This document shows, one piece after another, positions 3,054 through 41,443 of a stretch of 41,443 bases of DNA; position 1 is the stretch's first letter, and every line of letters starts with the position of its first letter. The position numbers were made by a program, and so were the translations under genes. Below the pieces are notes generated by a model. The model saw nothing but the letters and a program-made list of their open reading frames with translations. It made no database searches and was not told the DNA's origin. The DNA is from Catajapyx aquilonaris (taxonomy: Eukaryota): assembly GCA_000934665.2 (NCBI GenBank), contig JYFJ02003449.1:1-41443 (forward strand). The letters are read 5' to 3'.

Positions 3054-3617
3054 TCAGTCACCCTTGTGGCCGGAGCCCGATTCGCGATTCCTTCTTTCCC
3101 TCCACGGCCACCGACCGCCGAGTTGACAAAATGTCCGGACCAACAGGGGGGCCAGGACCACAGTGAAGTGCAACTTCAAGACTAGTTTGAACATCGGGCT
3201 CAGGCAGGAGTGGTATCCACCGCTGACCCCAGTAGGGCCGGGCCGAAGACCCTGCGGCGCACCCGGAACATCATCCAGCAGGCCTCCCCGGCTCACGTCG
3301 AACGCCGGCGCCCCGCTCAACGTGATCCTCTTTCGATGTCCGGCAGGGATGCTCCGAATGTTTCGAGTGACCTCATTCGCAACTACATAGGAATCTAGGT
3401 ATACTATGGCACTTGTGCCCACCCTATTAAATTCCACTGGATTACGGGGCTGGCAGAGGGCAGATTGCAGACAACTCAGCAGCTTGTCCTTCTCCTGACC
3501 CATCGCATCATGGAAGGTGACTTCGTACCACCTATTAGGCGGACGTTCCTGCACCACGGAGCCCGCTTCTGTAGGTGGTTCCTCCTTCAATGCGGCGGCG
3601 CTCCCCTTGGCTGCCAT
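3054..3617 (-). CDS. ORF containing an NXF1/TAP-type RRM (domain about 3318-3533); probably a fragment
   Basis: RWYEVTF...EKDKLLSCLQS...PRNPVEF...TSAIVYLD...A...KRITL aligns without gaps to the NXF1 RRM as I recall it (WFKITI...DKAWLLSMIQS...PFTPIEF...TRAQFFVE...RRISI). Confidence 0.6.
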   Translation of the reverse strand: MAAKGSAAALKEEPPTEAGSVVQERPPNRWYEVTFHDAMGQEKDKLLSCLQSALCQPRNPVEFNRVGTSAIVYLDSYVVANEVTRNIRSIPAGHRKRITLSGAPAFDVSRGGLLDDVPGAPQGLRPGPTGVSGGYHSCLSPMFKLVLKLHFTVVLAPLLVRTFCQLGGRWPWRERRNRESGSGHKGD

Positions 3618-3664
3618 CAGGGCCTTCCGTTGTTTATCTCGGCCTTAGATACGGTGGCAATGCC

Positions 3665-5469: not shown

Positions 5470-6160
5470 GCCAGGACCATTGGACGTCCGAGAAAGCTGG
5501 TGATCTCTCCCTCGGACAGGTGAGGCACCGGCTGCCGCAACCCCCCCCCCCCCCCCNCCCCCCCCCTTCCAAGGCTGAAGATGGTGGGCCTGGGACCCAC
5601 AGGCGATCTACCGGAGAGGTGCAGGGTGATGGTCCTTCCGGGCGTTGACCCCAATGGAGATCCTGGCCGCTCCCCGCGCGACCAAGTCCATCCGCTGCTG
5701 GAGTTCCTCCGGGCTGCCACCCAACAGCGTAATGTCATCCGCAAAGGCGAGAACATGGTGTTCGCCCTCACCTGGCTGGATCTCCCACATGACAGGGTCA
5801 ATGGCCAGGTTGAAAGGAACGCTGGACATTGGGTCGCCCTGCCGGATGCCGCAGTCGGTCCCGATGGTGGAGGTAGGCCCCTCAGCAGTAAGGATGATGG
5901 TGGTGGTACCGCCCCGGTGCAAATCCACGGCGACTTAGGTGAGGATGTCCCCCACTCCCGCCGCTCTCAGGGAAGCCTCGATTGCACCGTGCGGCACCGA
6001 GGTGTAGGCTGCAGAGAGGTCCATCCAGCCAATGCAGATGTCTTCCTTCCCGTCCAGGGCCTTGCCCATGGCCTCCTGGAGCACAAAGTTGTGCTCAAGG
6101 ACACCATCGTAAGGGTGGAATCCCTTTTGCCCCAGGTGAAGGGCCTGGTAACTCTCTGAT
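5470..6160 (-). pseudogene. Reverse transcriptase fragment of an RLE-type (NeSL/Utopia/R2-group) non-LTR element
   Basis: QKGFHPYDGVLEHNFVL, WMDLSAAYTSVPH, GIRQGDPMS, LAFADD. Disrupted near 5935. Confidence 0.85.
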
Positions 6161-7908: not shown

Positions 7909-8186
7909 ATTATTGGTTACAATATTCGTGGTTGTTTCTTGGGCTGTTGGTGTGCGTGGGTAGGAGGTTTGGTCCCCCTGGGCGCTGGCCCAGGGGGGCT
8001 TGGGCTAATGCTGGTTCCGGGGGTCTGGGGCTTCGGCTCCGGTTCTTCCTTGGGACAATATTGACTGTTCCAAGTCAATATGCCCCGGCCCCAGACTGTA
8101 TGGATCTGGGAGCCGGACATTGTTGGATTGTTGCCCACAGGTGGTAAGGCCTCTTTGGCTAATTACACCTGCAATTCTTTTATCTA
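7909..8186 (+). mobile_element. Second, shorter copy of the R1-like 3' UTR
   Basis: Reverse complement of about 854-1133. Same 3' end (...CTTTTATCTA), different 5' truncation. Confidence 0.85.
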
Positions 8187-9900
8187 GGGCCACCTCCATC
8201 GCCTCCCTTTGGGCCGCCGACCGGCACGCGACCCGGTAGCCAGTTCCGTCCATCGCGATGGCCCGAAAGCCGCCTTCCAGGACCTGGCTGGGCAACGCGG
8301 TCCGCAGCGCCTCCGTCGCATCCACCACAGTCGCGGCTTCCGCTATGGAGACGGTGCAAACGTGCCCCTGGCTGGGAGTTGGGAGCTCTGGGAAGGCCTC
8401 CTCCAGGGAGGGGACCTGCGCCAGCGCGCGCTCCTCGTATGGGGGTGGCGGCGTCGATGGGTCCGCCGCCACCTTCAGCAGGGGGCCCCTACTCGGTGCC
8501 GCCTTCTTCGCCTTCTTGGGGGGGCCAGCCCCGGCGGCCACCACGNAACCGCGGCGTACGAGGACCCTGGCGCATCGGGCACTCGCCCGCCGCATCCGCC
8601 CTCGCCCGCCGCATCCGCCCTCGCCCGCCACAAGTGCAGCCTTGGTCCCGCCGGCCGCCTTCGCCTTCTCCGACAGGAGCCGACGCGCCTTCTCTCTCTC
8701 GAGGGCCACCTCCGCCTTGGCCCGCTCGGCCTCCGCCTTGGCCACCCTCGTTTCTCCGGCCCCGAGCTCCTGCGCCCGTTCCAGCCGTTCGTTACGGCAG
8801 GCCAGCAGCGTGCCCAGCTCCCTGATCCGGGCCACCGCCGCCCGCACGTCGACCTGGTCCCCCTTCGTCACGGAGATCTTGCTCGCGCTCTCCCTGGATA
8901 CCGCAGCGAGGATGATCTCCAAGCTTTGGTTCTAACCCAAGAGAGTCGCGGCAAGATCCCGCCCCTCCTTGTCAGCCCCGGGGGACCCTGCGCCCCCCTG
9001 GGTATCGGGTGATACCGCCCGCATTGGCGAGTGGCCCGCAGGCCCCGCTCCCCGACCGCGGCTCTTCGACCGGGTCCCGTGTCCGGCCGTCTGGGCCTTC
9101 GTGTCCGCTCTCCGTGGTCGTCGCGCCTCACTCTCGGACCCAGTCTCACTCCCGTCCGACGACACGCACGACTCACCGTCCGCATCGCCCCCCAACGGGG
9201 GTCCCGCGGCACCCGCTGCGGTCTGCTCCGCTGCGTCCTCCGAACCACTGGACACGTCACTGTCACCTCAACCACGGCACCTTTGGCGGCACTCCGTACT
9301 GGACACCGTCGCTCGCACACCACCGAATCAGCGTTCTTGTCGCCCTCCTCACCCTCGGTGGCGTCGAGCAGCCGCTTCTCCTCCCGCAACTGCAACCGCA
9401 GCGCCCTGGCCGCCTCCAGCTCGGCGTCCGCTTCCTCGGCTGCCTTCATGGCCCTCTTCACCTTCGCCGCCCGCTTCCTGAGGCTAAACTCATAGTCTGA
9501 CTCTTCGTTCTTTTGGCGCATGGTGAACTCCTGCAACGACAGTATGTAAGTATTTTTGCTCCAAAATTGGCCCTTGCAGGACCGCGCACAGGCCTCCGAT
9601 CTCCTTACTGCCCGTGGAGAACTCCCTAGTCTGTCAAGAGCGCGGGGCCACTCAAAATGACCCGGCAGATCCCAGACGGGGATCTGGTACCGGCACACAC
9701 CTGCGCGCTGTCACTACAGTACAATGGGCCACTGCTGAAAGGGAACCATTCCCAGTGCGCGAGACACCCAGCAAGGGTACCCTAAGGGTGCCCGGCGCAC
9801 TTTCGAGAGTAGCCGCGACAAGCACGGAACCAGCTCCCCACCCGGATGTTCCCTAGGAAACCCGGACCCCGTCTAAGCTCAGAACGAGGTCCAAGAAACC
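8187..9900 (-). pseudogene. GC-rich LINE 5' region and gag-like ORF1 (R1-like), frameshifted
   Basis: Overlapping charged and coiled-coil ORFs (8005-8922, 8932-9255, 8868-9698). No zinc knuckle survives, so the family call is tentative. Confidence 0.55.
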
Positions 9901-11289
9901 CGCTTCGTGATAGATGAGAATGATAATAATGAAGTGAAAACAGCATATCATATAATTGATGTGTGTGATAAAATAATATGCTCAAGACAATAATTCATAA
10001 CTTCCTCTGTCTGTGACAGAATTGTGCCTATAACATTACCATTAAAATGTATCAACATGTAGTCAGATTACAATTTTTATCTTGATGTACCTTTGGATCA
10101 CTTTAGAAACACAATTACTTCTATAAAAAAAAAAAGTGCTTACTTACAACTTTTGGAGAGCACTGTTGGCATCCAGTTCAATTTGGGCAGTGCTGGGCTG
10201 CTGGCCCCTTTCTGAATCACTTCAGTCATTGAACTTCTGGACTTGTCTGCTCTACCGCGCATTCTCAGGCGAGCCACCTTTCTTCTAAGCGACACTCGAT
10301 GCATGAACACACTCTGAAGAAGGAGAAAGAGGAGGGGAATGATGGCGAAGATCAACATTACTTCCTGAACAACAAGTGTTTCGTTGAAACATAGCCATGC
10401 ACACTTGTCATTTGTAATCTTGGTACCTCGCTTTGGGGTGTCCCAAAGAAGGTCCGGGTATTTCAGCTTCATGAAAGCTGCCGAAGCGGTCTTCAAACTA
10501 CACCACTAGATCAAGTTTGTTAGTGATGTTTGACTTCAACTTTGCCAGAAGGTCTTGGATATCTGCGATCGTGGCCATCTTTCCGCCTTCTGCTGAGCCC
10601 GGTAGTGGGGGAACTGCAAGTGGCCATGTGTCCTCGGCTCGACTGCTGTCAGTATTATTTTCTCAATACAAACAAAATATTTTGCCTAATATCTCCCGCC
10701 CATTTACTTGATGTGTATGACACACACCGGATGAGCAAATAAAAACAATGCGGGTCCATGCTCCTGTATAGACGGATAGTGATAAAAATACCTCAAAATT
10801 ATCGCTCGACAAGAACTTACTTCCTGGACATGACAACTGCATGTGTACCTGACATCAAGAGCTAATGGTGACATCCACCCCCAGTCTGCCAACTGTAATG
10901 AAGCTGGGCTGAGCAAGGGCTCCCCAGATATGTATCCAGTGAGTGGGAGCCCAGCCAAAAAAGTTGAGTTAAAGCAGGTTAAAGTTAGCCCCCCTTTTGC
11001 CAGGAGTGGTTTCGCTCCTCCTCCCTTTGTGCCAAGGGGATGAAGGAAGCTACTTATTGTTTCAGCAGATAGGAAGAGGAAGATGGGCGTAGGTGGTCGT
11101 CCATTCTAACTACGTGGTTCTGGCCAATGGAGTTCGTGTACCAATACTCGGGCTAGGTGAGTCACAATACATGACAGCTTCATGTAAAATATGAAGAGCA
11201 TTATTATATATTACAAGAAACACAGAGCATGTCAACAGATATCAATTATATTTCCACGCCAATAAATTTGGGCTCACACAATGAGTTAA

Positions 11290-20992: not shown

Positions 20993-21297
20993 GCAGACAG
21001 ACCGACAGTATTGTGCACTTCATCTCCACTTCTGCTATTTCAGGAAGTGGTCCTGTAAACATTGATCCATTTTTTAAAAGGTGTTCATATCATACCTCCT
21101 TCAGTGGAAGTGCTCAGGGAATCTTGCAGTTCGTGAGGGTGACGACGCTGAAGATGTGCCCTCAAGTTGGTGGTATTTCCACTGGTTTTTATCACATCAT
21201 TGCAAATGCTGCACTTCGCTGTTTGGCCCGTTAATTTTGAAAAGAATTTCCATAAATTGCTTTTCTTTCCCTTGCTGCAAAAGAAGACCATATTCAA
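20480..21297 (-). pseudogene. hAT/ZBED transposase N-terminus (BED finger), spliced fragment
   Basis: SNLWKFF...AKCSIC...SGNTTNLRAHLQRRHP. Confidence 0.8.
20941..20992. repeat. (TAT)n microsatellite
   Basis: Perfect trinucleotide run. Confidence 0.98.
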
Positions 21298-21488
21298 GAT
21301 TAACTTTGAAAAATCTATACTACAGTGCTTCCCAATAATTTTCAGAAAATGGTGTCAAAAAATTGGAAACCACGAGTGACCCAAGGTCATATGACGTCAC
21401 ACTGGTCACAGTAAACCTAACTAAGAGAATCCCCCCTTGCCCTTGCCTCTACTCACGCTCTGTAAGTCTGTAATCTCTGTATCTCTAG

Positions 21489-26200: not shown

Positions 26201-26449
26201 CTTGAAGGCTCCCCAGAAGGATAACTGCATCATGGTGTGGAGGTCCCACTACAGGAAACACTCCGCTGCAGAGAGCCGCCCAATTGTTGGCAGGTCACCA
26301 GGTGTGCGCCCATTGTTGGCAACACACCGTTGAGTGTGCGTCTCCTCGTTAATGGGTAGGCTGGCACCTTCACTCCTGGTTGCTGTGACCACAATGTTTC
26401 GAAACTGGAGGCAGAACTTCACCCACCAGCAGAAGGTCACACTGTTTGC

Positions 26450-27310
26450 ACCGCCATCTCCTCGAGAGCGTGAATGAGAGGGATGTAGATTTCTATTTCT
26501 ACGAACCTTATAACAGCATCGTGTCTTTCGACCCAGCGTGTTTGGCACAGAGGCATCAGAGATGAGTGTCGGGATGAAGGCATATCTCGAGAGATGGTCT
26601 TTTTAAGAACATCAGTTCTCTGTGGCGAATACCTAAAGAAGGCGGCAACGGAACCGATGCTTCCCATGCAGTTCCGGACAGTAGGGATTTTGCATGAGTC
26701 CGTTAGAGCCAGGTTCAATGAATGGGCTGCACAGTGGACGTAAAGCGCCATAGGATGCTGCTCTCGGATGATTGCCTGCACTCCATTCCGATGACCACTC
26801 ATTGAAGCCGCGCCATCATACCCTTGACCGATGATGCACTCCACGTCTAAACCTTTTTTCCTTAAAGTTTTCATGATCAGGTCAGCTATTCCTCGTCCAG
26901 AGACGTCGTGAGCAGGGACGAACTCGAGAAAATCCTCTCGGAGGATGTGTTCCTGTATGTCAATGTATCTGATGCACAGAGACATCTGCTCAATTTTTGC
27001 TGTGTCAGTGGTTTCATCTGGCAATACGGCAAAACATCCACCTGCATTGATCTTCTTTACCAGTTGTTCTTGGATGACACATCCGCTGATTGTAATATGT
27101 TCATTTTGGATCCCCGGACTTGTATATTGGGCGTTCAGCGAGGCCTTTTCTAGATACTCCTTCAGCGTCACATCTCCAGACTTCATCCTAAATCTCAGGA
27201 GACCTCTAAAGTTACCGTCATTTTCTAATGGTTCGCGCATCGTGATAGGACCTGAATCATTTTTTCCTCTCAGAGGAATTTCTTGTCGACCACAGAATAG
27301 TGGGAGAATG
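26450..27310 (-). pseudogene. hAT transposase fragment (THAP12/ZMYM1-like, Tip100 group)
   Basis: CGRQEIPLRG, GNFRGLL, YTSPGIQNE, DETTD, GQGYDGAASMSG, HCAAHSLNL, TRWVERH. Both ends truncated. Confidence 0.93.
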
Positions 27311-27992
27311 TGGGAGGTTTTGGAAAAAAAATTACCCATGATTTGGCACCTTTTGGAATAGGAAACATTTTTCAATGTTTCATTTAGGCATGATGTGGGA
27401 CTTTTAGACACCGAACATTTTTGGTACTAAGATATGTGAACGACACGGTAGATGGCGCAAAAATCTCAATTCAAAATTGATGTGGGAGGTTTTAGAAATA
27501 GACTATTCACATCTTGGTGAAATGCCATTGAGCTTTGATATAGGTTCATGCAATAAAGGAAATAAGGTAGACAGAAAATTATTTAGCTTACCCATATATT
27601 TTGCCGCACGAGGCTGTACTTGCTACCTGTTTTAGCAGTGTCCTACTGCAGACGTGGATATGCAGCGTCCATTGACTTCCCTAGCCTGTAATACTTGACT
27701 CTATTAACATTTTTGCTCTCACCCAATATCAGATTGTTGTTGCTGTGAAACCCATAAGCCCAAATTAATCATAAATATAATTTGTACTAAATTCCTTTAT
27801 TTTCTTTCCCATTGTTGGCTACTTACTCCAAAAAAAAAAAAATGATTTCGTCCTTTAGTTGCTTACTCAGGGAAGCATGTGTTTTTGCTGTTATATCATC
27901 CCCTTCAAGGAGTGGTTTCACCATCTCTGAGAACTGGGGAAGCTCTTCATTGTGGGACCATATGTAGGCCTCCCTCTCAAGCGTCTCTTGAG

Positions 27993-28620: not shown

Positions 28621-29534
28621 TTAACAAATTTGCCTTAATAGAACTAAAGCCATTCTTCCTCGCTAGATTCGGCCTGTATTCTCATCTGTATGTGTAAAAA
28701 AAAATCGATCTCCTATGACCATTTGTTGAGACATAAGGGACAGGGGCGGGCTGCCCAAAACCGCCCGTGACAAACACCCCGGACACCAGCTAAGTGACCA
28801 GGGGGAACGACCACCAACCCCCCGGCACAACTCAGCGCACAGTAAAAGCAAATTGACAAGAACAAAAAAAAATTAAAAGAAAGAAAGCAAACAAAATTAA
28901 ATAAAAAAACCCATCACCAGAAGACCCCAAAATAAAAATGAACCTCGTGCTACAAAATGGCGGAAAGAAGTATACAAAACCCGGTGCATCCAGCCTGGCC
29001 TGCACAGACACCCCCAAAAGCCCAAACAAGAAAGCCAAAACAAAAAAAAGGGGGGGGGGGAACTTGCAACAATTAACACAAAGGCTACAGTAGCAAGTCC
29101 TCTTCGTCGACGTCGTCCACCGCATCCATGGGTACACCCACTCCCGCAGCCCCTTCGCCACCAACCGCCGCAGCAGCAGCAGCAGCAGGTCCGCGGTGTC
29201 GAGCAACCTCGGCCTGGAGGGCAGCCAAGAGCCCACGCAGCCCCTGGACTTCCTCCCGCAGGGCGGCGTTGTCCGGGGCCACCGGCCCGCCCACAGCCGC
29301 CACCATCGCCCCGGGCGGGGCGAAGACTTGTTTGGCGCCCTCTAGTCGGTGCTCCGGGGTCCTGGCCCAATCCCATGGTGGAGTAGGAAGGGGCCGGTTG
29401 GGCCCAATCGCGGGCACCAGGCTGGCCTCCAGCTCCCTCGGCGGGCCCGGGCGGAAACGCAGCGGCCACGGCTGCCACGGGTGGTCCACATGGTGGACGT
29501 GGCCCCCCGGCGAACCCCTGTCCACTTCCGGGGC

Positions 29535-30920
29535 GAAAACAGGGGCAGGATACTGGGTTCCAACGACATATAAGTGTCAATGTCCGCAATGAATAAATTA
29601 AAAAGTACTGGGGACAGCGGTTCGCCCTGCATGACGCCGCGACTCACCTTTAGCTCGCCAGGATCTCCATTTTGAGGGATCAGGCGGACCTTAGAGTATA
29701 TATTTATCAAAATATTAATGAAGTGGTCCGGGAGTCCCGTTTTCTGCAAGTGGCTCCATAGATCATTATACTGAACAGAATCGAACGCTTTTGACAGATC
29801 CAGAAATAGTGCGAATAATTTTCCTTTTGGTTTCGTGAATTGGTGTTGTATAAGTGTATTTAGCAGGAATATCTGATACAAGCATCCTCTTCCGCGTCTA
29901 AAAGCCGCTTGAGTTTCGGGAAATACTTTTCTGGCCTCCGCCCACTGTGACAACCGGTTAACCAGGACGGAGGTGTATAACTTAAATATATTATTAAACA
30001 GGGTTATAGGTCGGTAGTTCTCCGGATTTAATGGATCCCCCTTTTTGAAAATTGGAATAACCGTGGCAACAGGCCAAGAGGACGGTATTAGTGTCGCGTT
30101 TAGGCAAAAATTTGTCTGAGCTAGTAAATAGTCAAAAACCACTGTTGCTTTAATTTTCAATATGTTATTTGATATGTTGTCAGGCCCAACTGATTTATTC
30201 CTATTCAGATTCCCGATTGCCTTTGCAAGTTCGTCTTGCGTAATTAATTGTAACAGCACAGTGTCGTCCTTAGACATGCATATAGTTAAGGTCATTAATC
30301 CAGTTGAGGCATTACATTGATTACTGTAAAGGCCTGTGAGATGGTGCCACCATACGTTTGGCGGCAACTGCGTTGACAGCTGACCTTTTTTCCCTTCATT
30401 TATCAAGCGCCAAAAAATCCTGGCGTCCTTCGTTTGGCTCAAGGTTGCCATTCTAGTTCTGTTATAAGCTGAGCACTTGGCCTTTTTAAGGTTTTTGTAT
30501 GCTCGGTTTGCCTCCCTGTAACTGACTAACTCCGATTGCGCGGAGGATCTCCGCCATTCGCTCAGTTTTTGCAAAACTACCTTCTTGGCTCCTGCTACTT
30601 CCGCATCGTGCCAAAGAGCTTTGCGCTTTCTGGCATGCGCGGGTTTTTCAGGTCTATGGGGGTAAAGAAGCCCTTCCTCTATGAGAAGATCTGTGACCAA
30701 CTTTGCAAGCAACAGGGACCCTGTATCCATAGATAATTGACTTTCTTCGGATGAGGACCCTTCTTCACAAGATAAAAGTGACCAAGTGTCTATCAATGGC
30801 GCTAAGTGATCCAGGTGTGTGTCAATACGTGCTAACCTAAGGCAAGTGTCTCCCAGCTGATAGCAATGGGGAGTTTCTAAAGGCGATAATGAAGTGTACA
30901 ATGCAACTGGAAAGTGGTCC
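29535..30920 (-). pseudogene. LINE ORF2 fragment (linker plus N-terminal RT), truncated at both ends
   Basis: KSVGPDNI, PIFKKGD...NYRPITL, QAAFRRGR, FLDLSKAFDSV, GVMQGEPLSPVLF. Ends before YADD and starts abruptly at DHFPV. Confidence 0.93.
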
Positions 30921-31697
30921 AGTAGTGGGTGAGTAGCTCCTCCTTGGACATCCTGTCTGAACTGCAGGCTGAACTGCAGGCTGAACACTTCCGGTTTGCG
31001 GTGGAGACTTCATGGGGCCACCTGTTTCCGCTCTATTGTTCTCCGATCACCTGTTTCCGGTGTAGGGGGCCACCTAATCCAACAGCTGTCAATCAATCAA
31101 CGTGTGTCGGCGTCAATCAAACGTTACCAACGTATGTATGTGTGAGGCTATTTTTTCTATTATTCTATAACTGTTTGACAGCTATCTCATTACCTAACGT
31201 GTCACTACACAACTACCTGCTTCTCAATGTTGCCAATCTCTAGGGAGCCAACTAATCCATCACCATGATGATAGCTATCAATCATACATCACCAACGTGT
31301 GTATATATGTATATGACGTCACCCAACGTACGCCTACGTACGCCTACGCACGCTTACGCACGTCAATCACACGTCACCAACGTATGTATGTATGAGACTA
31401 TTTTTTTTCGTGAGAATCAATGTTACCAACTGGAATACATATATCCACCTAATCATGCTCTTGAGACCAACAGCCTCCCCTGTCGATCATGAGGAGTCAT
31501 CTAACGGTGGCCCTGGTAAACCAAACAATTATGCACAAGAAGGTGTAGAGCACTCCATCTAGCGGTAGATACTAGAACGACACCATCTCGCAGCAGCTCG
31601 ACCTTGATCACTTGTTAGCTAAAAAACAACCTCACCTGTTATGAATCCATAACTATTCCCAAATATGCCACCTGGAGGTCATCCAATCTAAAATATG

Positions 31698-31786
31698 TTA
31701 TTTGAGGTCATACAATGAGACGAGAATTGCTAGTTTTTTAAAATTCTTCTTTAAGTCTTGTACAAGACTGGACACCTGCAAATGAG

Positions 31787-31857
<71 letters not shown>

Positions 31858-32090
31858 AACTTGTTAGAAATCGTCAACAACATGTTGCAGCTGTTGTTGT
31901 TGCTGTTGTTGTTGCAACAGTTGTTGATGATGTGTAACGATCGTCTAACTAATGTTGCCTCTCTACGTTCACACCTCTCAACCGCTCGATGGTAAATCCC
32001 ATAAATCAAAAAAAAAAGGAGTATTGCAGTTGATGTAACAGTCATAGCCAGAATAATATCTATCCACTCACACTTGACTGTTGGGACCAT
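31698..32090 (-). CDS. Small putative membrane protein (possible Polinton accessory ORF)
   Basis: ATG ORF with hydrophobic IILAMTVTSTAILLFFLIYGIY followed by a charged stretch. The poly-Leu comes from (TAA)n at 31787-31855. Confidence 0.4.
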
Positions 32091-32506
32091 CTATAATTTA
32101 AAAATTGTTCAGATACAGAATATCGTTCACACATGCAAATACGCACCTCTATAATGTTCAATCCTAACGTCACAAATGAATCTCTTACCAGCAATTATAG
32201 CTGATTGTGAATAAATCATTTCCGGCTAACACTCTTCAGTTGCAAATCCCACGTTCATTTTTCGCATAGACATTTTTTTTTTCATATGACGGAAAAAAAA
32301 AGCTTGCACTGTCCAGCAAACGTTATTTATTGCACAAATAATGTTCATAATTAATCAAGATTAATGTGTATGTGTGGGACAAGATGTAAACTACATCAAA
32401 CGGAATAATTTAATTCCACGATTATTTACGCGCATTACATGCTGCATATTTACAAGACAGGTGCAAAATGCCATGTCAGCTCTAGGCTTGGCTCAAATAA
32501 GATTCA

Positions 32507-32909
32507 TAATTAACTATCAACGATGATTACGGAGGTCGCGGTATCGCTGCGGCTGCATGAATCTATCTCGTAAACGGACTGTTTAAAAAAATTCACAGAT
32601 CCTTGAGTTGATCATTTATAGTGATTATTCTAATTAGGTATGGTGTGGAATGAGACGATCTATTTAAATATCACATTTACATAAGGACCCGTATCATAGT
32701 TAATTAACTATCAACGATGATTACGGAGGTCGCGGTACCGCTGCGGCTGCATGAATCTATCTCGTAAACGGACTGTTTTAAAAAATTCACAGATCATTGA
32801 GTTGATCATTTATAGTGATTATTCTAATTAGACATGGTGCGGAATGAGACGAGCTATTTAAATATCACATTTACATCAGGTTCAATGTCACAGATAATTA
32901 ACTATCAAC
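32507..32909. repeat. 194-bp tandem repeat, two copies plus the start of a third
   Basis: TAATTAACTATCAAC recurs at 32507, 32701 and 32895. The two full units are nearly identical. Confidence 0.95.
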
Positions 32910-33658
32910 CAATATGTGACAGCCTCTTCTTGGTACTGATCCTGCTCAATCTGTTCATGCCTCCGAAAATATGTACACTATAGATGCCATCACGTATGAT
33001 CAACTTAAGTGTGCTATAGAGGTCAATCACCCCACGTTAAATGTGTTGTGAAAGTTCAAGCAGGATTTCACATCCAGTGCGAATGGTGGCGAAAGGTGTT
33101 TATCAAGTTGAAAAGGACAAACCAGTGTTAAATGTCCTGGATTTTTCGACATATAAGCGTGAAGATTTGGCGCCAGAAGCATGATATCCAACAACATACT
33201 GGTGAGTTGAGTTTTATCCTCTGTATATTTGGTTAGTGGTTTTTCTATATGTAAAATTATTGTGTTCAAGGTAACAAGAGCTCATGTTTCCTTTTGATTG
33301 CGTAACAGTTGTTTTTACACACCATTATTATTAAGTGTAAAAAAAATGACAAGTTGGTGGAGTTTTATGTTATTTAATTGTGATCACTCATAATTTGTGA
33401 GTTGGGACATTAAGTTACATCAACTGCTCATTTTAAATATTTTATTTTTTCCCCAGAGTTAAAGTTGAGTGATTTCATCGGAGCTTGTGTGTTTTTTTTT
33501 CCTGAACCATGCTGCGAAGTTATGTCTACCCTACCCAGAAAGAAAAAAAATAACTTCCACCGCAATTGTAAGTACACATTTGATTTTTTTAAATACTTTA
33601 CTTTTTTTTACAACCAACCACTATAAAAAAAAGTTGACGGTGCTATAATTTTTATAAT

Positions 33659-34711
33659 ATGCATAGACTCCGAGCCAATAGCACGCATGCTTTGCATCGA
33701 TATCAACCGTACAATGAAAAATCCTTATTATTTTCTAAGGGACAATACGATGCGAGACGGAAAAGAATTTCGAATGTTGCCGATCCCATAGCTGAAGGAG
33801 ATGTGGTGACAAGAGGATTTTTACAAGCTAGCCGCTCTAAACGTGACGTGCTGCAAATAGGTGATCAAAATTTTATTGATTTCAAAGGAAAAATAATTAG
33901 ACAGATAGGGGAACCCTTAAATGGTAGTGACGCTGTAACATTAAATTATTTATCTGAAAATGTGATTCAAACCTCAGCAGAGCAATTTATTAATATTATG
34001 AAAGGGAAAGTTTTGCGAAATATAGCCACAGCTATAGAGCCAATGGATGCAATTAATAAGAATTACTTGGAAAATATTACTCTAAAAAATGGTAAGCCAC
34101 TTATAATGCTAAATTCATCGGTAGATTGTGAAGGTTGTAAACTGCAAAATATTACAAAAGCTGTCGATAATGGTGACGCAGTTTCAAAGGAATTTTTGGA
34201 GGAATTTGAAACGAGAATGGGCAATCCTCTTGTCATTCCAAAAACTGGTCCAATAAATGCTGCTGAACGTAGAATTACAGATATAGCGGACGCAAATTTT
34301 AGCACAGATGCAATAAATCAGAGATATTTCAGACAACACGCTTTACATCTTAAGGAGGATAATGGGGAAAAAGTTGTAGACTGTAAAAATCACAGGATCA
34401 TGCGTGTGTCAAACCCGAAAGATGACAATGATGCAGTGAATAAAAAATATTTAGAGCAGGTAATTTCTTCAGTTTCGAGTTTGACGACAGAAGGATATTT
34501 CACAGCTAAATTTGCACAGATTCGAGATGTTGGCCCACCTCTGGCTAAGGACCATGCAGCTACTATGGGTTATGTGGACGGCGAGATAACTCAATTAATT
34601 TTAGCCATAAAATATATAATTGAGTCATCGTTGGAGAGATTTATAATAAAAAAGGATCAGGCTGAACTGAAAATGCTTTTATTGACTAAATTGAACTATC
34701 GTGAGGTGTAA
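33659..34711 (+). CDS. Fibre/spike-like repeat protein (350 aa)
   Basis: Seven repeats of the form D...RI.NV..P....DAV.K.YL, resembling phage tail-fibre and trimeric adhesin neck motifs. TATAAA near 33622; AATAAA after the stop. Confidence 0.8.
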   Translation: MHRLRANSTHALHRYQPYNEKSLLFSKGQYDARRKRISNVADPIAEGDVVTRGFLQASRSKRDVLQIGDQNFIDFKGKIIRQIGEPLNGSDAVTLNYLSENVIQTSAEQFINIMKGKVLRNIATAIEPMDAINKNYLENITLKNGKPLIMLNSSVDCEGCKLQNITKAVDNGDAVSKEFLEEFETRMGNPLVIPKTGPINAAERRITDIADANFSTDAINQRYFRQHALHLKEDNGEKVVDCKNHRIMRVSNPKDDNDAVNKKYLEQVISSVSSLTTEGYFTAKFAQIRDVGPPLAKDHAATMGYVDGEITQLILAIKYIIESSLERFIIKKDQAELKMLLLTKLNYREV

Positions 34712-34756
34712 CAAATAAATAAATAAATAAACAATTTTTCTCAAAAACATTTTTTT

Positions 34757-35170
34757 TTATTCATAACGTTCAAGGACAGTATTAAAAGAATCCCCGCTTG
34801 ATAAATCTGACAACATTAAGATACACAGATGCCCACAAACAGGCAAATCGCATCTCTGTAAACGCACAGAATTATAAAATAAATTGTGGGTGTGCAAATA
34901 GTTCATAAGTTCAACAGGTGATCTTAAATTTCCATAAGGATCGAAAAAAAATCCCATATTATTTCTTAAGTTGTAACACACCCAATGGGTCCCATAGCCT
35001 TTTGTAGAATCTAAATTAACTATCCCACACTCATTCGGTTGGGGCCCTGATTTAGGTAAATTATCTCGCATGAAAACGCCCCGAAAATTTGGAATTCGAA
35101 GCCATTTAACTAGCCTAATCAAATCTTGATCACTTAACGACGATACCGTCTCCGTCCTGCCCCGACACAT
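34757..35170 (-). CDS. Adenain-like cysteine protease (Polinton PRO)
   Basis: IPNFRGVFMRDNLP, GIVNLD...GTHWVC, FFDPYG, LQ...VCGHLC, with H, D, Q and C intact. The first ATG is at 35170. Confidence 0.93.
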   Translation of the reverse strand: MCRGRTETVSSLSDQDLIRLVKWLRIPNFRGVFMRDNLPKSGPQPNECGIVNLDSTKGYGTHWVCYNLRNNMGFFFDPYGNLRSPVELMNYLHTHNLFYNSVRLQRCDLPVCGHLCILMLSDLSSGDSFNTVLERYE

Positions 35171-35387
35171 TTTGGATTGTACGGCTTCAAGTAGAGACCT
35201 GCTCCCAATTTTCTCTGTAAGGCTGCTAATATCTCTGTCTGATGCGTCATCTCCTGAGTACGCTTTCGCTGATTTTTTGCCGTTATTATAGTATTCGCAA
35301 TTGACGCTGCCGCCCCGCAAGAGCGGGAAGTAGGAACAAAAAACCCCCCGAGCGCTTTTTTTTTACACGTGTCCGACGACGCTTCAT
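35134..35387 (-). pseudogene. Adenovirus protein X-like core protein gene, one frameshift
   Basis: MKRRRTRVKKKRSGGFLFLLPALAG / AAASIANTIITAKNQRK...KLGAGLYLKPY...GRRRYRR*. One extra G at ~35315 gives 84 aa. Confidence 0.8.
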
Positions 35388-35857
35388 AATTAATGATGTG
35401 AAATCTTCAAGCGTTGCCCGTATTTATACTGTTAATTCTGTCAACTGGGACCCGCCCCAATTAGTCTGAAAATGACGATTATAAAGGATTAGGTAGTGCA
35501 GGCGGCAATCTGCCGGTGTAACTTTGTTTAATTTCAAATCTAGCATCATTGGCGAGTTATTGGTAGTCAACTCGTCATTTTGATATTTACAATCCAAAAC
35601 AATTAATGTAGATTCATTTATAAAGCGCTCGAGCGATAAATACGTAGGCATATCATCCCGTTCGTAATACGAGCTTTTAAAATTCTTGTACATGTTATAC
35701 AAATTGACCAGTGAGTGCTCGCCATTATGAATGTTTAACTCTTTATTTGGATACCTAACATTATTAATCCAAACGCATACGTCACGAATATCCAAGTGAT
35801 CAAAGTTTGAAGTATTTTTAAGCCACTTATTTTCACGACCCTGCTGCATTCCTATAA

Positions 35858-36708
35858 CACTGGTCTACAAGGTTTTTGTAGCAAAGATCACTGATAGTGT
35901 TCCTAATAGAACCTTTTACGCTGAATTCAAATATGTAATTAGAATCTTTCCATCACGCATAGTTTTTTTTCTACGACTGTTTTTATGTTTTTATGGGATT
36001 AATGAAAAACTTTGTTAAGGCAATGGACCGCACTGGTGATGGATTTTCCTACTTGAAGGAACAATTCCCTAAGATAAGTGATGCCAAGATTAAGGAAGGG
36101 ATTTTTGTGGGTCCTCAAATAAGGCAGTTGATGAGGGATACAAGATTTGAGGAGCACTTAAACAGCGTAGAAAAGGCAGCATGGAATTCCTTTGAAAGTG
36201 TCACCAAAAACTTCTTGGGGAATTCAAAGGCTGAAAATTACCGTGAATTAGTATGCGAACTCTTGGACTCCTACAAAGCTATGGGATGCAACATGTCCCT
36301 TAAGATCCATTTCCTGAACTCCCACCTGGACTTTTTCCCGGAGAATCTTGGTGATGTCAGCGATGAACAAGGAGAGCGTTTCCATCAAGACATCGCCAGC
36401 ATGGGAAAGCGGTACCAAGGAAAATGGAATCCAAATATGTTGGCAGACTACTGCTGGACACTCAAGGGAGATATCCCACAAGCAAAATACAGCACATGGT
36501 CATCAATGGCTTCTTTTTAATGGGTAATGTATATGTAACTTATATACCAGCTTCATATGACTCCTTCAAATTTAAATTGTGTGTTACGTAAAAACCCTGC
36601 GTGATAGAAAGAAACTAATTACATATTTGAATTCAGCGGAAAATTTACTATTAGAATCACATATTATTTCCCGTGCTACACAAAAAAGGTTTTCTTTGTA
36701 GACCAGTG
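35858..36708 (+). mobile_element. Internally deleted Chapaev3-type (CMC) DNA transposon
   Basis: TIR CACTGGTCTACAA...TTGTAGACCAGTG, 3-bp TAA TSD (35855-57 and 36709-11), longer imperfect subterminal inverted repeats. Confidence 0.88.
35993..36520 (+). pseudogene. C-terminal part of a Chapaev3-type transposase
   Basis: GLMKNFVKAM, KIKEGIFVGPQIR, MSLKIHFLNSHLDFFP, VSDEQGERFHQDI, MLADYCW. Confidence 0.88.
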
Positions 36709-37528
36709 TAATAATAAAACGGGGTGAATTTATTTTAAGCCCTGGGATGGAAATATTGAAAGAGTGGCTCGTTAAATTAGGTGCTAGAGGTAATGAGCCT
36801 GATCTCCAATCTCTGTAAGAAATTGATATTGGTGCTTCCGTGTTAATTAATGACAAATATTTCTGATAAGTGTCCAATGACAGATCACAATGTGGAACGA
36901 AAACTGAGATTTTGTTATAAACGACACTAAGATCTCTGAGTCGTTTTTGCACCTGCATCAGCGCCATCTGTGGTAATAACAAACACGTCGGATGATGAAT
37001 TCCCACGAGTTAATTTTAATTGAACCGACCATCCGTCACCCTTTCACATCTTCAAAAAATCCGGAGAGTAATTTTAACGGTATAATAAAACTGAATTTTC
37101 CTTCATTTGTAATTCTATGTTCTTCAGTTTTTGCATTCGACCACTGTAAGTTGTAATCATCCATATTCTGGTCAATTGAACTCGCAAGAGTTTTCATAAG
37201 AACTGCATGTCCTGGATTCTGTAAATACGACACCTCAGTGCCAAAAATACTAGCACTAAACTTTGCAAAGTCAAAAAGAACGAAATTGTTCACCGGTTTT
37301 ACATTATCAGCTAGAGACCAAATGTGGTCACCTTTTTTTATTTGACCTTCAATTAAATAGTACCATCCTTCCATCTTGAAAAATTGGTCAAGGGGAGGAA
37401 TATTGTGCACAATTTCAGTTAATGGATAATTCAGATCGCTATTTTGAGGTAAAAATTCTGTGTACTGTAATCTATTTAAAATGTCTGGCTGATCACCAAC
37501 TAAGGAAGAGAGTATTGCGTCACCTTGT

Positions 37529-38218
37529 TTACTCAGCATCTTGTATATGAATTCTGAGACAAATGATATCGTTCCCGTTATTTATAGGCTGACCATCTTC
37601 GTCGCTAATTAAAAATTCTAATTTATCTAAAAAAGTCGTGTCTAGTGGTAAATATATTGGGTGTGGTATGTCTGAGATAATACTAAAATGAGGTGGTACA
37701 GAGGGAATGAAACTATGTAATAAACTGGTGTCATGTTGATTGGTGTATCCTTGTCGAACAGCTGAACAATGTATCTGAATCGAGTTTATCCCCATAATTC
37801 TAACAAGGTTTTTCGCATTTTCCCACCCAGATCCTCTGATATCAGCCTGAGTGAATCCTAAAAGTTTACCAATTGTATTACTTGGCCTGTTAAAATGTAA
37901 AATTAATTTAGTGTCTTTAACTTTAATTTTAGCTCGCCCTGTTAAGTCGTCGATTTTAATTTCTACCGATCTTCCTGGTAAAATATCTTGTATAACTTTA
38001 ATCAGATCATTAACTTCATAATGACCAGCTGGAATGTATTTCACCGACTCGTTTGTGTCATAGGTGAATGCAATGGCCCAATTCCTATTATTAACATTAT
38101 GAAAGTTATGATAGGTATTGTACGATATTAATGCCATCTTACTATTCTCAGATAATGATATAGGTGGATAAAATGAGACGTTGATTGCGGGTGCATACCC
38201 TGTAACTTCCAGCAACAT
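37529..38218 (-). CDS. Minor capsid protein (penton, single jelly roll)
   Basis: FYPPISL...TYHNFHNV, IPAGHYEV, TIGKLLGF, INSIQIHCSAV, LHSFIPSVPPHFSI, IYLPL, DEDGQPIN...LRIHI. Intact; overlaps the capsid start by 11 nt. Confidence 0.92.
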   Translation of the reverse strand: MLLEVTGYAPAINVSFYPPISLSENSKMALISYNTYHNFHNVNNRNWAIAFTYDTNESVKYIPAGHYEVNDLIKVIQDILPGRSVEIKIDDLTGRAKIKVKDTKLILHFNRPSNTIGKLLGFTQADIRGSGWENAKNLVRIMGINSIQIHCSAVRQGYTNQHDTSLLHSFIPSVPPHFSIISDIPHPIYLPLDTTFLDKLEFLISDEDGQPINNGNDIICLRIHIQDAE

Positions 38219-38252
38219 ATTTAAAATGTCAGCCGATGTTCAAGTAGAGCAT

Positions 38253-38589
38253 TTATATTAACTGTAACAGTCGGTTATATTGTTTGAGAGAAATATACTT
38301 TTTTAATTCGTCCGCGATTGCAACTAGTTCATTTCGGTGTGAACTGTTACCAGCTTTGGAGGATTCCAACAGGGTTTGAAATCGTATTAATAAATCATCC
38401 GCTGAATTATACGGGAGAAAGTCAACTTCGTTCACTCGTTTTATTCGCCCCCCAAAATATCCTCCCTCACCTGTTGTTTCCGGTATCGGGTCCAATAAGG
38501 GCACACGACGTGCCCAGAGTGCACTGACAATATTATTCCATTTATACGAAACACTCGCTTTGGGTCGTCCAGCGTATCTATTATCATCA
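38253..38589 (-). pseudogene. 3' part of a conserved Maverick ORF found upstream of penton, 5'-truncated
   Basis: DDLLIRFQTLLESSKAGNSSHRNELVAIADEL resembles the ELxxRLxLLxxSxxAGN...NE motif. The frame stays open upstream (KASVSYKWNNIV) to the junction. Confidence 0.75.
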
Positions 38590-38660
38590 TCTAATACATA
38601 TTTCTCGACGTATGTCTGTCTGTCTGTCCGCTATGCAAATCCGTACGGAGGCCTCGACAT
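38590..38660 (+). mobile_element. Helitron-like 5' end that truncates the Polinton
   Basis: A|TCTAATACATATTTCTC...TGTCTGTCTGTCTGTCCGCTATGC. No 3' hairpin-CTAG found nearby. Confidence 0.5.
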
Positions 38661-39172: not shown

Positions 39173-39392
39173 CCCGCTACAAAACCGACTGCAAGTCACT
39201 TGCGGGACCCCTCAACCTGCCTGCAACTTACGGCTGCAAGTCTGCAATCTGCAGGCCGACTTGCAGCCTGCAAGGGTGTTCGTTTTCGCTCCCTCCCGCA
39301 AACCGCAGGTAACCCAGGTAACGTAAACACTTTGGCGGCTGCAACTTTCCAGGCGGGCGTTCATTTTGCAGCCCTTTTGCAACCTGGCAAGG
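39173..39392. mobile_element. EnSpm-like terminal fragment
   Basis: CCCGCTACAAAA followed by many CTGCAA/TTGCAG motifs in both orientations. Confidence 0.45.
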
Positions 39393-39399
39393 GCAAATC

Positions 39400-40035
39400 T
39401 CTTGCACATTTCAGGCAGGTACAGGGAGACACCAAATCAGGAGGTCTCAAATGCTCTGATGATATGATCGGCTTGAAAACGTCTTCTTCTTCTTTGTAAC
39501 CAAATTCTAGTGGGTCCAGTGGTGGTTTTCCTTGCAGCACATTTGTCCATATGTAGCACTGAAGGTATGCACGCTTAATATGATGCAACATTGTTGATGA
39601 AGGTGGACACAGTTGAGAGAAATTAATTTCCTTTGTGGTATTGTTGCCATCGAACTCCATCACAATTTCTTTTAGAAGAACCGAGTACTTTTGCAATAAA
39701 CAGTTCAGAATTTTTAATCATGTCTTCATCAAGAGGAAAAGCCCCAAAATTACTGAGCAGTTTCCCAGAAGAAATGGCTATTTTAAGCGCCATAGATTTT
39801 GTTACTACCTTGCTCGTTGTATCGGAACCAGTTAAACAATGGGCTGCTGGTAGAACTGATAGCAGAACGTCATCCATGTTTTCCCTCATTTTGTGAAGTG
39901 GTATGTATTTCACAGATGCTCGTGTTTCTTTGATTATCCACAGTTCCTTAAGGCCACCTTTTAGAAAACTATTTTTGAAGGGGTATAGCGCAGAGACCAT
40001 AACATCTGTATCAGCTGAAGCTATTGTGACCGTAC
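39400..40035 (-). pseudogene. Academ-type transposase C-terminus (XPG/PIN-like domain plus start of a Cys-rich finger)
   Basis: SADTDVMV, KELWI, LPAAHCLTGSDTTSK, CPPSSTMLHHIKRAYLQCYIW, DPLEFGY, CTCLKC. Frameshifted. Confidence 0.75.
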
Positions 40036-40820
40036 GTTGCGAGTGGGTACACCAATGAAGGACGTTGTTACGACTAGAGTATATATTCAGGTTATGACGT
40101 GTACAGAACACGGAATGAGGGTGGAGGAAAAAGGTGATGACCAGAGCGACTGGTCCCGGATTGAGGTCAGACCGGGTTTTTATAGTCCAGGTTTGCGATG
40201 CATGATGGGAGTGATGGGTGTAGGGTGGATTAAACCGGAAAAGAAAGATCGAACAAAAGATATCCAAGGATATACAAAAAGTGAAATTGGGTAAGATGTG
40301 GCATTGGTTGACATAGCCATCAGTAGGAAATAAATTTGCTGCCAATGCTGTCACATACCTCCCACCGAAGCTGCCACGTAATGACAAATTTAAACATGTA
40401 GTGGACGAAAAAATAAGAAGGCAGCAAAGTAAATGAACAGAATGAGGGGGGTTGTATATAAACATAAGCAAGTAAGTAATAATGCAGCGTTAAACGGGTC
40501 TTCTTCCGGCTAGCACACAGTCAAGTATGGCCCGACAAACCATCAAAATAAAAAATCATTAAGCCCGGCCAATGGGGCAGCATCACGTGTGTGAGAGAAA
40601 AAAAAATGAAAAGAAAGCTGCTTGGGTACCGCAGCACATGTGGCATAGTTACATGAGGACAAAACAGTCGGGTGCTTCTTCGTCTTCAGACGAGCTGATG
40701 GTCACTACGTCTTCTTTTGGAGGTGGCACCTGTCCTGGTCCAGGCTGATCCCGATGATCATGGGGGTCGGCTGCAGGCGACACCGTCTGTTCAAGGATCC
40801 GAAGGGGGGGGGGGGGGNGC

Positions 40821-41366
40821 TCAAAATAATCCCGAGGAGTTGGGTCGGAAGCTGGGGCACAACCCTCTCAGCCATACTGCTGGTTTCAGGCGGTTAAAGT
40901 GGACCTGCCTTGTCTTCATGTCACGGTCTCTTATGCGGTAGGTTGTGTCGCCAAGGCGGCTCCCCACCTGATATGGACCAGTCCAAGGTTTTTGGAACTT
41001 CTTGTGGACACCTCTTCTTAACCACACCCAGGAGTCGTCCGGGTAGGGCGCTCCGTGAACGTGCTTGTCGTACTGCGACTTCTGTCTCTGTCGGGCGGCG
41101 TCTAACCTGGTGCGTGCAGTATTGAACATACTATGTATCTCCTGAGACATCCGTTTGACGTGATCGGAAGAGGACTCTGCAACGTTGGAGCGGCCCAGAA
41201 GGAGAAGGTCTTCTGGCATGCGGGCCTCTCTTCCGAATGTCATGCGATACGGGGTATGCTTTGTGGATGCATGCATGTTATTTCGGTATGCGAGGAGAGA
41301 ATACGGCAGAAGGTCATCCCAATCGTCTGGGTGGGATGCAGCCAGTCCTCTGAGAATCTGTATCAT
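40821..41366 (-). pseudogene. Ty3/Gypsy integrase C-terminal half with GPY/F module
   Basis: WDDLLPYSLLAYR...STKHTPYRMTFGRE, KPWTGPYQV, VHFNRLKP. Confidence 0.92.
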
Positions 41367-41443
41367 CAGTGAATCAAGTATTGTCCCGCCATGCGGGTTA
41401 CAGTCTGGCCAGGATAACTTTGACCTCGCTCGTTAACCATCGA

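Follow-up and report, generated by a model that had tools for sequence, protein, structure and literature searches.

Among described systems, those closest to the locus reported here are the insect Mavericks and the Alpha (Mayetiola-class) adintoviruses, for instance Sf Maverick 1 and 2 of Spodoptera frugiperda, which according to the Sf-RVN cell paper carry POLB, ATP, ORF2, INT, CAP (PLA2), PRO, ORF6, ORF7 and ORF8 (PMC5803895). In the Alpha adintoviruses a pX-like domain lies at the C-terminus of PLA2X (PMC8502044), and adintoviruses are defined, among other things, by a hexon that finds the hexons of reference adintoviruses reciprocally in BLASTp (PMC11071296). The Mavericks of vertebrates are mostly degraded fossils, 96% of them being defective (Barreat and Katzourakis 2021, PMC8097293), and in the adomaviruses the hexon is recognised by the PF21738 profile via HHpred (PMC13696692). 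We analysed contig JYFJ02003449.1 (forward strand, 41,443 nucleotides (nt), the whole of which is called the window) and found, at 33659 to about 38570, what is very probably a dead, 5'-truncated endogenous virus of the Maverick/Polinton type, with the virion class of the insect Mavericks and Alpha adintoviruses, residing in a transposon-rich genome of animal type. The part of it that survives is the particle-building module only.

Between 33659 and 38630 six reading frames are set close together (open reading frames, ORFs, were listed as stop-to-stop frames), five of them on the minus strand and one converging on them from the plus strand. In the order of minus-strand transcription the five are an ORF2-like C-terminal remnant (38253-38630), a penton gene (minor capsid, vertex; 37529-38218, 229 amino acids (aa)), a double-jelly-roll major capsid gene (35424-37539), a gene for a small basic-hydrophobic core protein resembling pX/Macc (35134-35387) and a gene for an adenain-like cysteine protease (34757-35170, 137 aa counted from its ATG); the convergent frame is a fibre-like ORF (33659-34711, 350 aa). 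The end of the penton gene and the start of the capsid gene share 11 nt, and the stop codons of fibre and protease are separated by a tail-to-tail gap of 45 bp (34712-34756). A reading made earlier from the letters of the DNA (the sequence-only reading) had placed five packed minus-strand genes and a convergent fibre-like gene here, with a gap of this length, and had recognised in them the morphogenetic module of Polintons/Mavericks; the arrangement proved to be as described, and the identity was borne out by the jelly-roll and adenain folds of the modelled penton and protease, two checks that had been set in advance and that both came out in favour. The penton, protease and fibre frames are open, as that reading had also said, and the other three of the six module genes (capsid, pX-like and ORF2-like remnant) are broken. 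When the ORFs of relatives were compared with the window by tblastn, 114 of the 115 segments fell within 33884-38549.

No Pfam family, no PHROG family and, by word-index protein search, no relative was found for the penton protein, and scans of viral contigs with single proteins (the window penton and one relative) found no relative either. When 1.84 billion representatives were searched in full with HMMER, 880 relatives passed E<=1e-3 and 295 passed E<=1e-10, but no match reached E<=1e-30; the best was 33% identical (E 2.5e-29), with a 167-aa fragment reaching 43%. An AlphaFold model, made from an alignment with 57 relatives, had a mean predicted local distance difference test score (pLDDT) of 94.5, and a fold search of the PDB with this model returned the mavirus penton (E 3.2e-9), many adenovirus penton bases and the Sputnik penton, so that the single-jelly-roll penton of Polintons/Mavericks is present at the level of the model. 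In BFVD the best match was a protein of Tetraselmis viridis virus S1 (E 3.8e-17, TM-score on the query (TMq) 0.75), and the other top matches included a 'putative penton' of a MELD virus, adomavirus LO5 (TMq 0.72-0.75) and minor capsid/DUF5901 proteins of giant viruses. A quick maximum-likelihood tree built from 52 pentons placed the window protein (best identity 32%) in no supported group and on an end branch of 3.42 changes per column (median 0.51), the position of so long a branch in a quick search being unsure.

Relatives of the element were obtained by scanning metagenome contigs with six penton relatives, which gave 48 loci, to which one from IMG/VR was added. The 12 longest loci held 175 ORFs, and 48 ORFs of eight loci were run through Pfam, the degraded-looking loci L042, L043, L047 and L048 being left out. 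In all eight loci the penton adjoins a capsid gene of 347-447 aa (193 aa at a contig end) matching PF21738 (E down to 5e-165); an A32 ATPase is present in five of the eight, PLA2 in three and a chromodomain-bearing rve integrase in one (L020). Locus L020 reads protease, pX-like and capsid on the minus strand and penton on the plus strand, with a fibre-repeat ORF, an ORF2-like gene, the A32 ATPase, PLA2 and the rve-chromodomain integrase following in this order; L038 has capsid, a 162-aa ORF and protease, and L012, L008 and L049 have the order protease, penton, capsid, as Sf Maverick does. Accessory genes were also seen beside the virion module, namely a BIR (inhibitor of apoptosis) protein (L012:4625-5470) and a matrixin metalloprotease (L038:3-842).

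The major capsid gene starts at an ATG at 37539 and now lies in four pieces: 37539-37036, about 37035-36928 (in a third frame, open for some 37 codons between two frame breaks near 37037 and 36927), about 36927-36709 and 35857-35424. Three capsid frames match PF21738 (DJR-like_dom) over profile positions 4-85 (E 2.3e-4), 116-210 (E 5.6e-6) and 190-314 (E 7e-19), and against a profile of 418 positions built from the capsid proteins of eight relatives the pieces cover positions 64-173, 203-277 and 276-414; the short third-frame piece had no match of its own to this profile. The pieces are some 22-35% identical to the relatives by tblastn. A word-index search of longer proteins with the last piece gave nothing, nor did PHROGs with a capsid piece. 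We conclude that the double-jelly-roll major capsid protein of Polintons/Mavericks is encoded here by a broken gene.

The last break in this gene is an inserted transposon of 851 bp (35858-36708), with terminal inverted repeats of 71 nt that are 85% complementary and with a TTA target-site duplication that can be read directly from the sequence (35855-35857 and 36709-36711). Since the capsid pieces abut across it (profile positions 277 and 276), the insertion removed nothing. The element carries a plus-strand ORF of 175 aa (35993-36520) for which no Pfam family was found, and as contig depth is higher over it than over its flanks, it probably represents a non-autonomous transposon present in multiple copies; a 3-bp TTA duplication would presumably fit an element of the PIF/Harbinger type.

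Downstream of the capsid the pX-like gene, with its ATG at 35387, is split over two frames, the break lying near 35312 in an alignment with six relatives. The frame at 35286-35423 supplies a basic N-terminus followed by GGFL..LP, and the frame at 35134-35406 the conserved C-terminal part, which gave 17 matches among the relatives' ORFs (best E 3.4e-9). The counterpart by position in L020 (L020:920-1399), which likewise lies between capsid and protease, is absent from the best 12 of these 17 and has a weak match to Adeno_PX (E 0.0065, below the Pfam cut-off). In several relatives (e.g. L014) the pX domain is the C-terminus of a protein that bears PLA2; in the window it stands alone.

The protease was assigned more firmly with its relatives than by itself. 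Alone it matched Peptidase_C5 at E 0.018 (below the Pfam cut-off) and the PDB entry 1avp at E 0.024, and PHROGs gave nothing for it, whereas a profile of 13 sequences matched the adenain 1avp at E 6.3e-5 with the catalytic motifs aligned. Residues H62, D77 and C112, which would be catalytic as in adenain, and Q105, which would be its oxyanion Gln, are invariant in all 13 aligned sequences. The top six PDB folds for the model (pLDDT 89) were adenovirus proteinase (E 3.9e-7 to 1.2e-5, TMq 0.64-0.68), followed by other clan CE proteases, so that the frame can be placed both with the adenain-like proteases of Polintons/Mavericks and in Peptidase C5. Among the relatives' ORFs there were 30 matches (best E 2.2e-35, 40-50% identity), and an ECGIVNLDS motif together with a C-terminal helix extension is shared by three of the 13 aligned proteases, those of the window, L020 and L038.

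The fibre-like ORF resembles phage tail fibres. It matches PF03906 (Phage_T7_tail, the N-terminal domain of the T7 tail fibre) at E 1.6e-15 and 16 PHROG families, 11 of which are annotated as tail fibre, tail or tail spike; the PHROG matches run via a motif of phage tail-fibre type, of which about seven copies were counted by eye along the protein. Against PDB sequences there were weak matches at the level of the repeat only (best E 0.06), and in the Atlas the closest cluster is a viral one (Preplasmiviricota, score 0.91), which we use as a lead only. The gene can be tied to the element by its 45-bp tail-to-tail spacing from the protease, by an ORF with the same repeats that adjoins the penton in L020 (L020:3450-4154; a weak repeat-level match, BLASTP E 6e-7 for the pair), and by a second copy of the element (see below), the contig of which continues from the protease into the 3' part of the fibre (34338-34711). 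The sequence-only reading had also pointed to AATAAA on both strands of the gap. On the plus strand the hexamer indeed occurs there four times, overlapping and within an (AAAT)-like run; the single minus-strand copy (34761-34756) overlaps the stop codon of the protease and lies only partly in the gap. The hexamer is weak evidence in any case, as it is frequent across 33600-38650 (13 times on the plus and eight times on the minus strand).

At its other end the element is cut off. A profile of five relatives' ORFs had a sole match in the window, to the ORF at 38253-38630 (E 1.1e-5), and matched it only with positions 184-253 of 258; the translation contains no M, and the tblastn similarity spans 38298-38549. 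The ORF is therefore the C-terminal end of a gene that has lost its start, and what had been listed by the sequence-only reading as a conserved ORF, and thus as a gene, is better described as a 5'-truncated remnant. Its counterparts in the relatives adjoin the A32 ATPase and seem to be the equivalents of 'ORF2' in the Sf Mavericks; PHROGs gave nothing for it. From 38589 rightwards the window enters a high-copy repeat, where the summed contig depth exceeds 3700 against about 140-250 alongside, and this repeat bounds the truncated element; the truncation zone is 38570-38589. Upstream of the remnant the ATPase, integrase and polymerase that relatives lead one to expect would have been lost. In agreement with what had been said before, the 109 stop-to-stop ORFs of at least 85 aa in the window include no match to the pPolB, A32 ATPase or rve families, the copy being truncated near 38570. 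Nor did any of the eight relatives' loci scanned reach a polymerase of the pPolB type.

With its capsid gene broken and interrupted by a transposon, its pX frame disrupted and its upstream genes lost, this copy cannot make particles or replicate. In an intact virus the penton would form the twelve vertices, to judge from the known families, the pX-like protein would be a core protein active on membranes, the adenain protease would cleave precursors during maturation, and the fibre, with its repeats of phage tail-fibre type, would presumably project from the vertices and bind the host cell. The suggestion that the capsid lesions are few and the virion module nearly reconstructable makes too little of the damage: the capsid gene contains an 851-bp transposon besides its two frame breaks, the pX-like gene has a break of its own, and the element as a whole is truncated.

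At least one other related copy exists in the same organism. Parts of the stretch were found in four DNA runs from one sample, and each of the four holds a contig of 5481 nt that matches 34338-35854 and 36709-38570 and differs from the window at 216 of 3379 aligned positions (6.4%). This sibling skips 854 bases, with three letters that fit either side, which corresponds to the 851-bp element plus one copy of TTA; the transposon must thus have entered the window copy after the two had diverged. Wherever the window has a frame break, the two copies differ in length there or a few bases away. Past 38570 the sibling runs on for 2091 nt that are unlike the window sequence, from which it follows that the window copy was truncated at about 38570-38589. 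The depth of the sibling contig (139-255) is four to seven times that of the window-identical contigs (27-47), which may be a hint of several copies collapsed into one contig, contig depth being a poor measure. The sequence-only reading had suggested that siblings may exist, which is borne out, and the divergent lineage of which it spoke fits as well (best penton identity 33% and a very long tree branch). It had also judged the insertion fairly young; the divergence of 6.4%, the later insertion of a transposon and the truncation suggest instead a copy of moderate age.

The sibling also bears on two alternatives. One is that the host has kept the penton, protease and fibre for a function of its own while the rest decays, which would explain why ORFs of 229, 137 and 350 aa stand open beside broken neighbours and why, among the length differences listed between the copies, none lies inside the penton or the protease. 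We consider such a domestication highly improbable: no RNA run was listed among those in which the stretch was found, the sibling shows that the genes belong to a repeated unit and not to a single conserved host locus, and there is no obvious role for a vertex protein or a maturation protease where a capsid is absent. Moreover, part of the 6.4% divergence may date from a phase in which the virus was active, which would leave ORFs open without any selection by the host. The other alternative is that viral DNA, for instance from a contaminant, was misjoined to host repeats during assembly. Among the contigs listed none bridges the junctions between capsid and transposon, and all four runs that contain parts of the stretch derive from a single sample, possibly the one from which the assembly itself was made. 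Nevertheless, 33603-33895 and 34069-34367 are covered by contigs that match the window exactly, the gap in the sibling agrees base for base with the transposon plus its 3-bp duplication, as in a true insertion, and frame breaks together with truncation by a high-copy repeat of the host are typical of genomic fossils, so that an artefact seems to us extremely improbable.

With the insect Mavericks and Alpha adintoviruses the locus shares the PF21738 capsid, a small adenain of about 135-145 aa, a pX domain of the PLA2X type and a penton that falls in one family with a Spodoptera frugiperda protein named 'ORF 6'. It differs from them in that its pX is without PLA2 and a fibre-repeat gene is present, in a penton identity of 22-34% and in a long branch outside the sampled groups. 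Loci L020 and L038 resemble the window in the order capsid, pX-like, protease and in the protease motif and C-terminal extension, and L020 does so also in the fibre-repeat ORF next to the penton; the penton of L020 is on the strand opposite to the capsid, L038 carries the matrixin gene, and identities between these loci and the window are 40-44% for the protease and lower still for the capsid. In the vertebrate Mavericks minor capsid, major capsid and protease likewise lie on one strand (PMC8097293), and the text of that paper that was searched mentions no fibre gene. Adenovirus has in common with the locus the penton and protease folds and a fibre gene in the virion module; the window penton is half the size, its fibre consists of PF03906 repeats and not of the adenovirus shaft repeat, and there is no similarity to adenovirus at the sequence level beyond the protease motifs.

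Several observations weigh against the Maverick/Polinton assignment. The features that define a Polinton (pPolB, the rve integrase, terminal inverted repeats and the 6-bp target duplication) are not in the window, and the one tblastn segment away from the module (40876-40968, 31 aa, E 2e-4) falls in a retrotransposon integrase region. The order of the genes is not that of the best-known relatives: Sf Maverick (PMC5803895) and most of the relatives' contigs have PLA2X, protease, penton, capsid, and the vertebrate Mavericks have minor capsid, PW, major capsid, protease, with the integrase heading the module (PMC8097293), whereas the window has penton, capsid, pX, protease. The link to 'ORF 6 [Spodoptera frugiperda]', likely the ORF6 of Sf Maverick, is drawn from name and organism only. 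Furthermore, the three adintovirus entries in BFVD came only at ranks 41, 42 and 46 of the fold search with the penton, with TMq 0.42-0.47 against 0.72-0.81 for the proteins of Tetraselmis virus S1, adomaviruses and giant viruses, which is why we regard the modelled penton as one of the compact type, and virion modules are reported to move between replicon types (PMC11071296).

From the last two points, and from the fact that the ORFs of the window include no replicase or integrase of the element, it could be argued that the locus is a fragment of another type of virus which shares the adintovirus-class virion module and has a different replicase, such as an adomavirus-like or 'MELD' virus. 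Adomaviruses do share the compact penton and the adenain protease. Yet they are circular (9-20 kb) with a superfamily 3 helicase, which is found neither in the ORFs of the window nor in the scanned loci of relatives, and their late operon reads Cah, Penton, Macc, Hexon, Adenain (PMC13696692), with Macc between penton and hexon, whereas in the window pX follows the capsid; the locus can therefore not be placed with the adomaviruses as defined by circular genome, helicase and gene order. The readable loci of relatives carry the A32 ATPase, PLA2 and, in L020, the rve-chromodomain integrase, and the presence of two or more diverged copies in a single genome agrees with an element that integrates, so that an origin from another type of virus is in our opinion improbable.

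The Maverick/Polinton-type virus described here likely belongs to a new lineage, as far as can be judged from a comparison with catalogued proteins. A profile search with the penton alignment returned 299 proteins, and among the 120 listed nearly all were unnamed, five were 'hypothetical' proteins from JGI, and the Spodoptera frugiperda protein was the one with a name. Likewise, only one of the ten top penton representatives was named, a Diabrotica protein of 1072 aa. As NCBI nr and UniRef were among the protein collections searched, no catalogued protein is close. One could go further and propose an undescribed clade of animal viruses, Maverick- or adintovirus-like, that is defined by the order penton, capsid, stand-alone pX, protease and by an adenovirus-style vertex fibre made of phage repeats, and that has members active in this host to the present day, the sibling being a recent or even live relative and not another fossil; we put this forward tentatively and think it rather doubtful.

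As a genomic fossil the locus is of an ordinary type, and since endogenous Mavericks abound and the majority of them are dead copies it does not change the general picture. It does add a divergent lineage of the virion module (its penton being at best 33% identical to any of the 1.84 billion representatives), it links a gene with phage-type fibre repeats to a Maverick module of animal type, which bears on how such viruses might attach to cells, and it provides, with two diverged copies of which one contains a datable transposon, a handle on the date of the invasion and on current activity. The fibre-repeat gene and the order of the module are its more interesting traits.

The element had been given a wider span before (30921-38589), of which the right end agrees well with the start of the high-copy repeat; the left part, 30921-33600, has no similarity to the relatives' proteins by tblastn, and nothing links this stretch to the element. 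Its first bases (30921-31009) are part of the stop-to-stop frame of a long interspersed nuclear element (LINE) reverse transcriptase, and beyond this end of the LINE frame at the left edge the stretch contains tandem and simple repeats. Between LINE and fibre gene we noticed a 194-nt unit in two tandem copies of 92% identity (32507-32894) and a long trinucleotide run (31740-31870) that reads poly-Ile, poly-Leu or poly-Asn depending on the frame.

The window as a whole looks like transposon-rich DNA of animal type, to judge from its transposons and from an ORF with a Tap-RNA_bind match. The LINE-type reverse transcriptase occupies 29342-31009 (minus strand), a second RVT_1 piece lies at 5611-5934, and the only part of an integrase in the window, at 40821-41432, is a C-terminus of the retrotransposon type (Integrase_p58_C). 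Adjoining minus-strand ORFs of 99-118 and 280-288 aa at 39361-40489 (the 280-aa ORF at 39623-40465), for which no Pfam family and no match to the relatives' loci was found, probably represent another mobile element. The region 8000-10000 reaches a G+C content of 0.60-0.68 and contains long open frames, which occur on either strand and in various reading phases; none of them matches a Pfam family. On the minus strand, zf-BED and DUF4371 pieces at 21088-21354 and 26440-27426 are probably the remains of hAT-like transposons, and an ORF at 3057-3644 with a Tap-RNA_bind match just below the Pfam cut-off (E 5.5e-5, 23.4 against 24 bits) is possibly an exon or a retro-copy of a nuclear RNA export factor gene.

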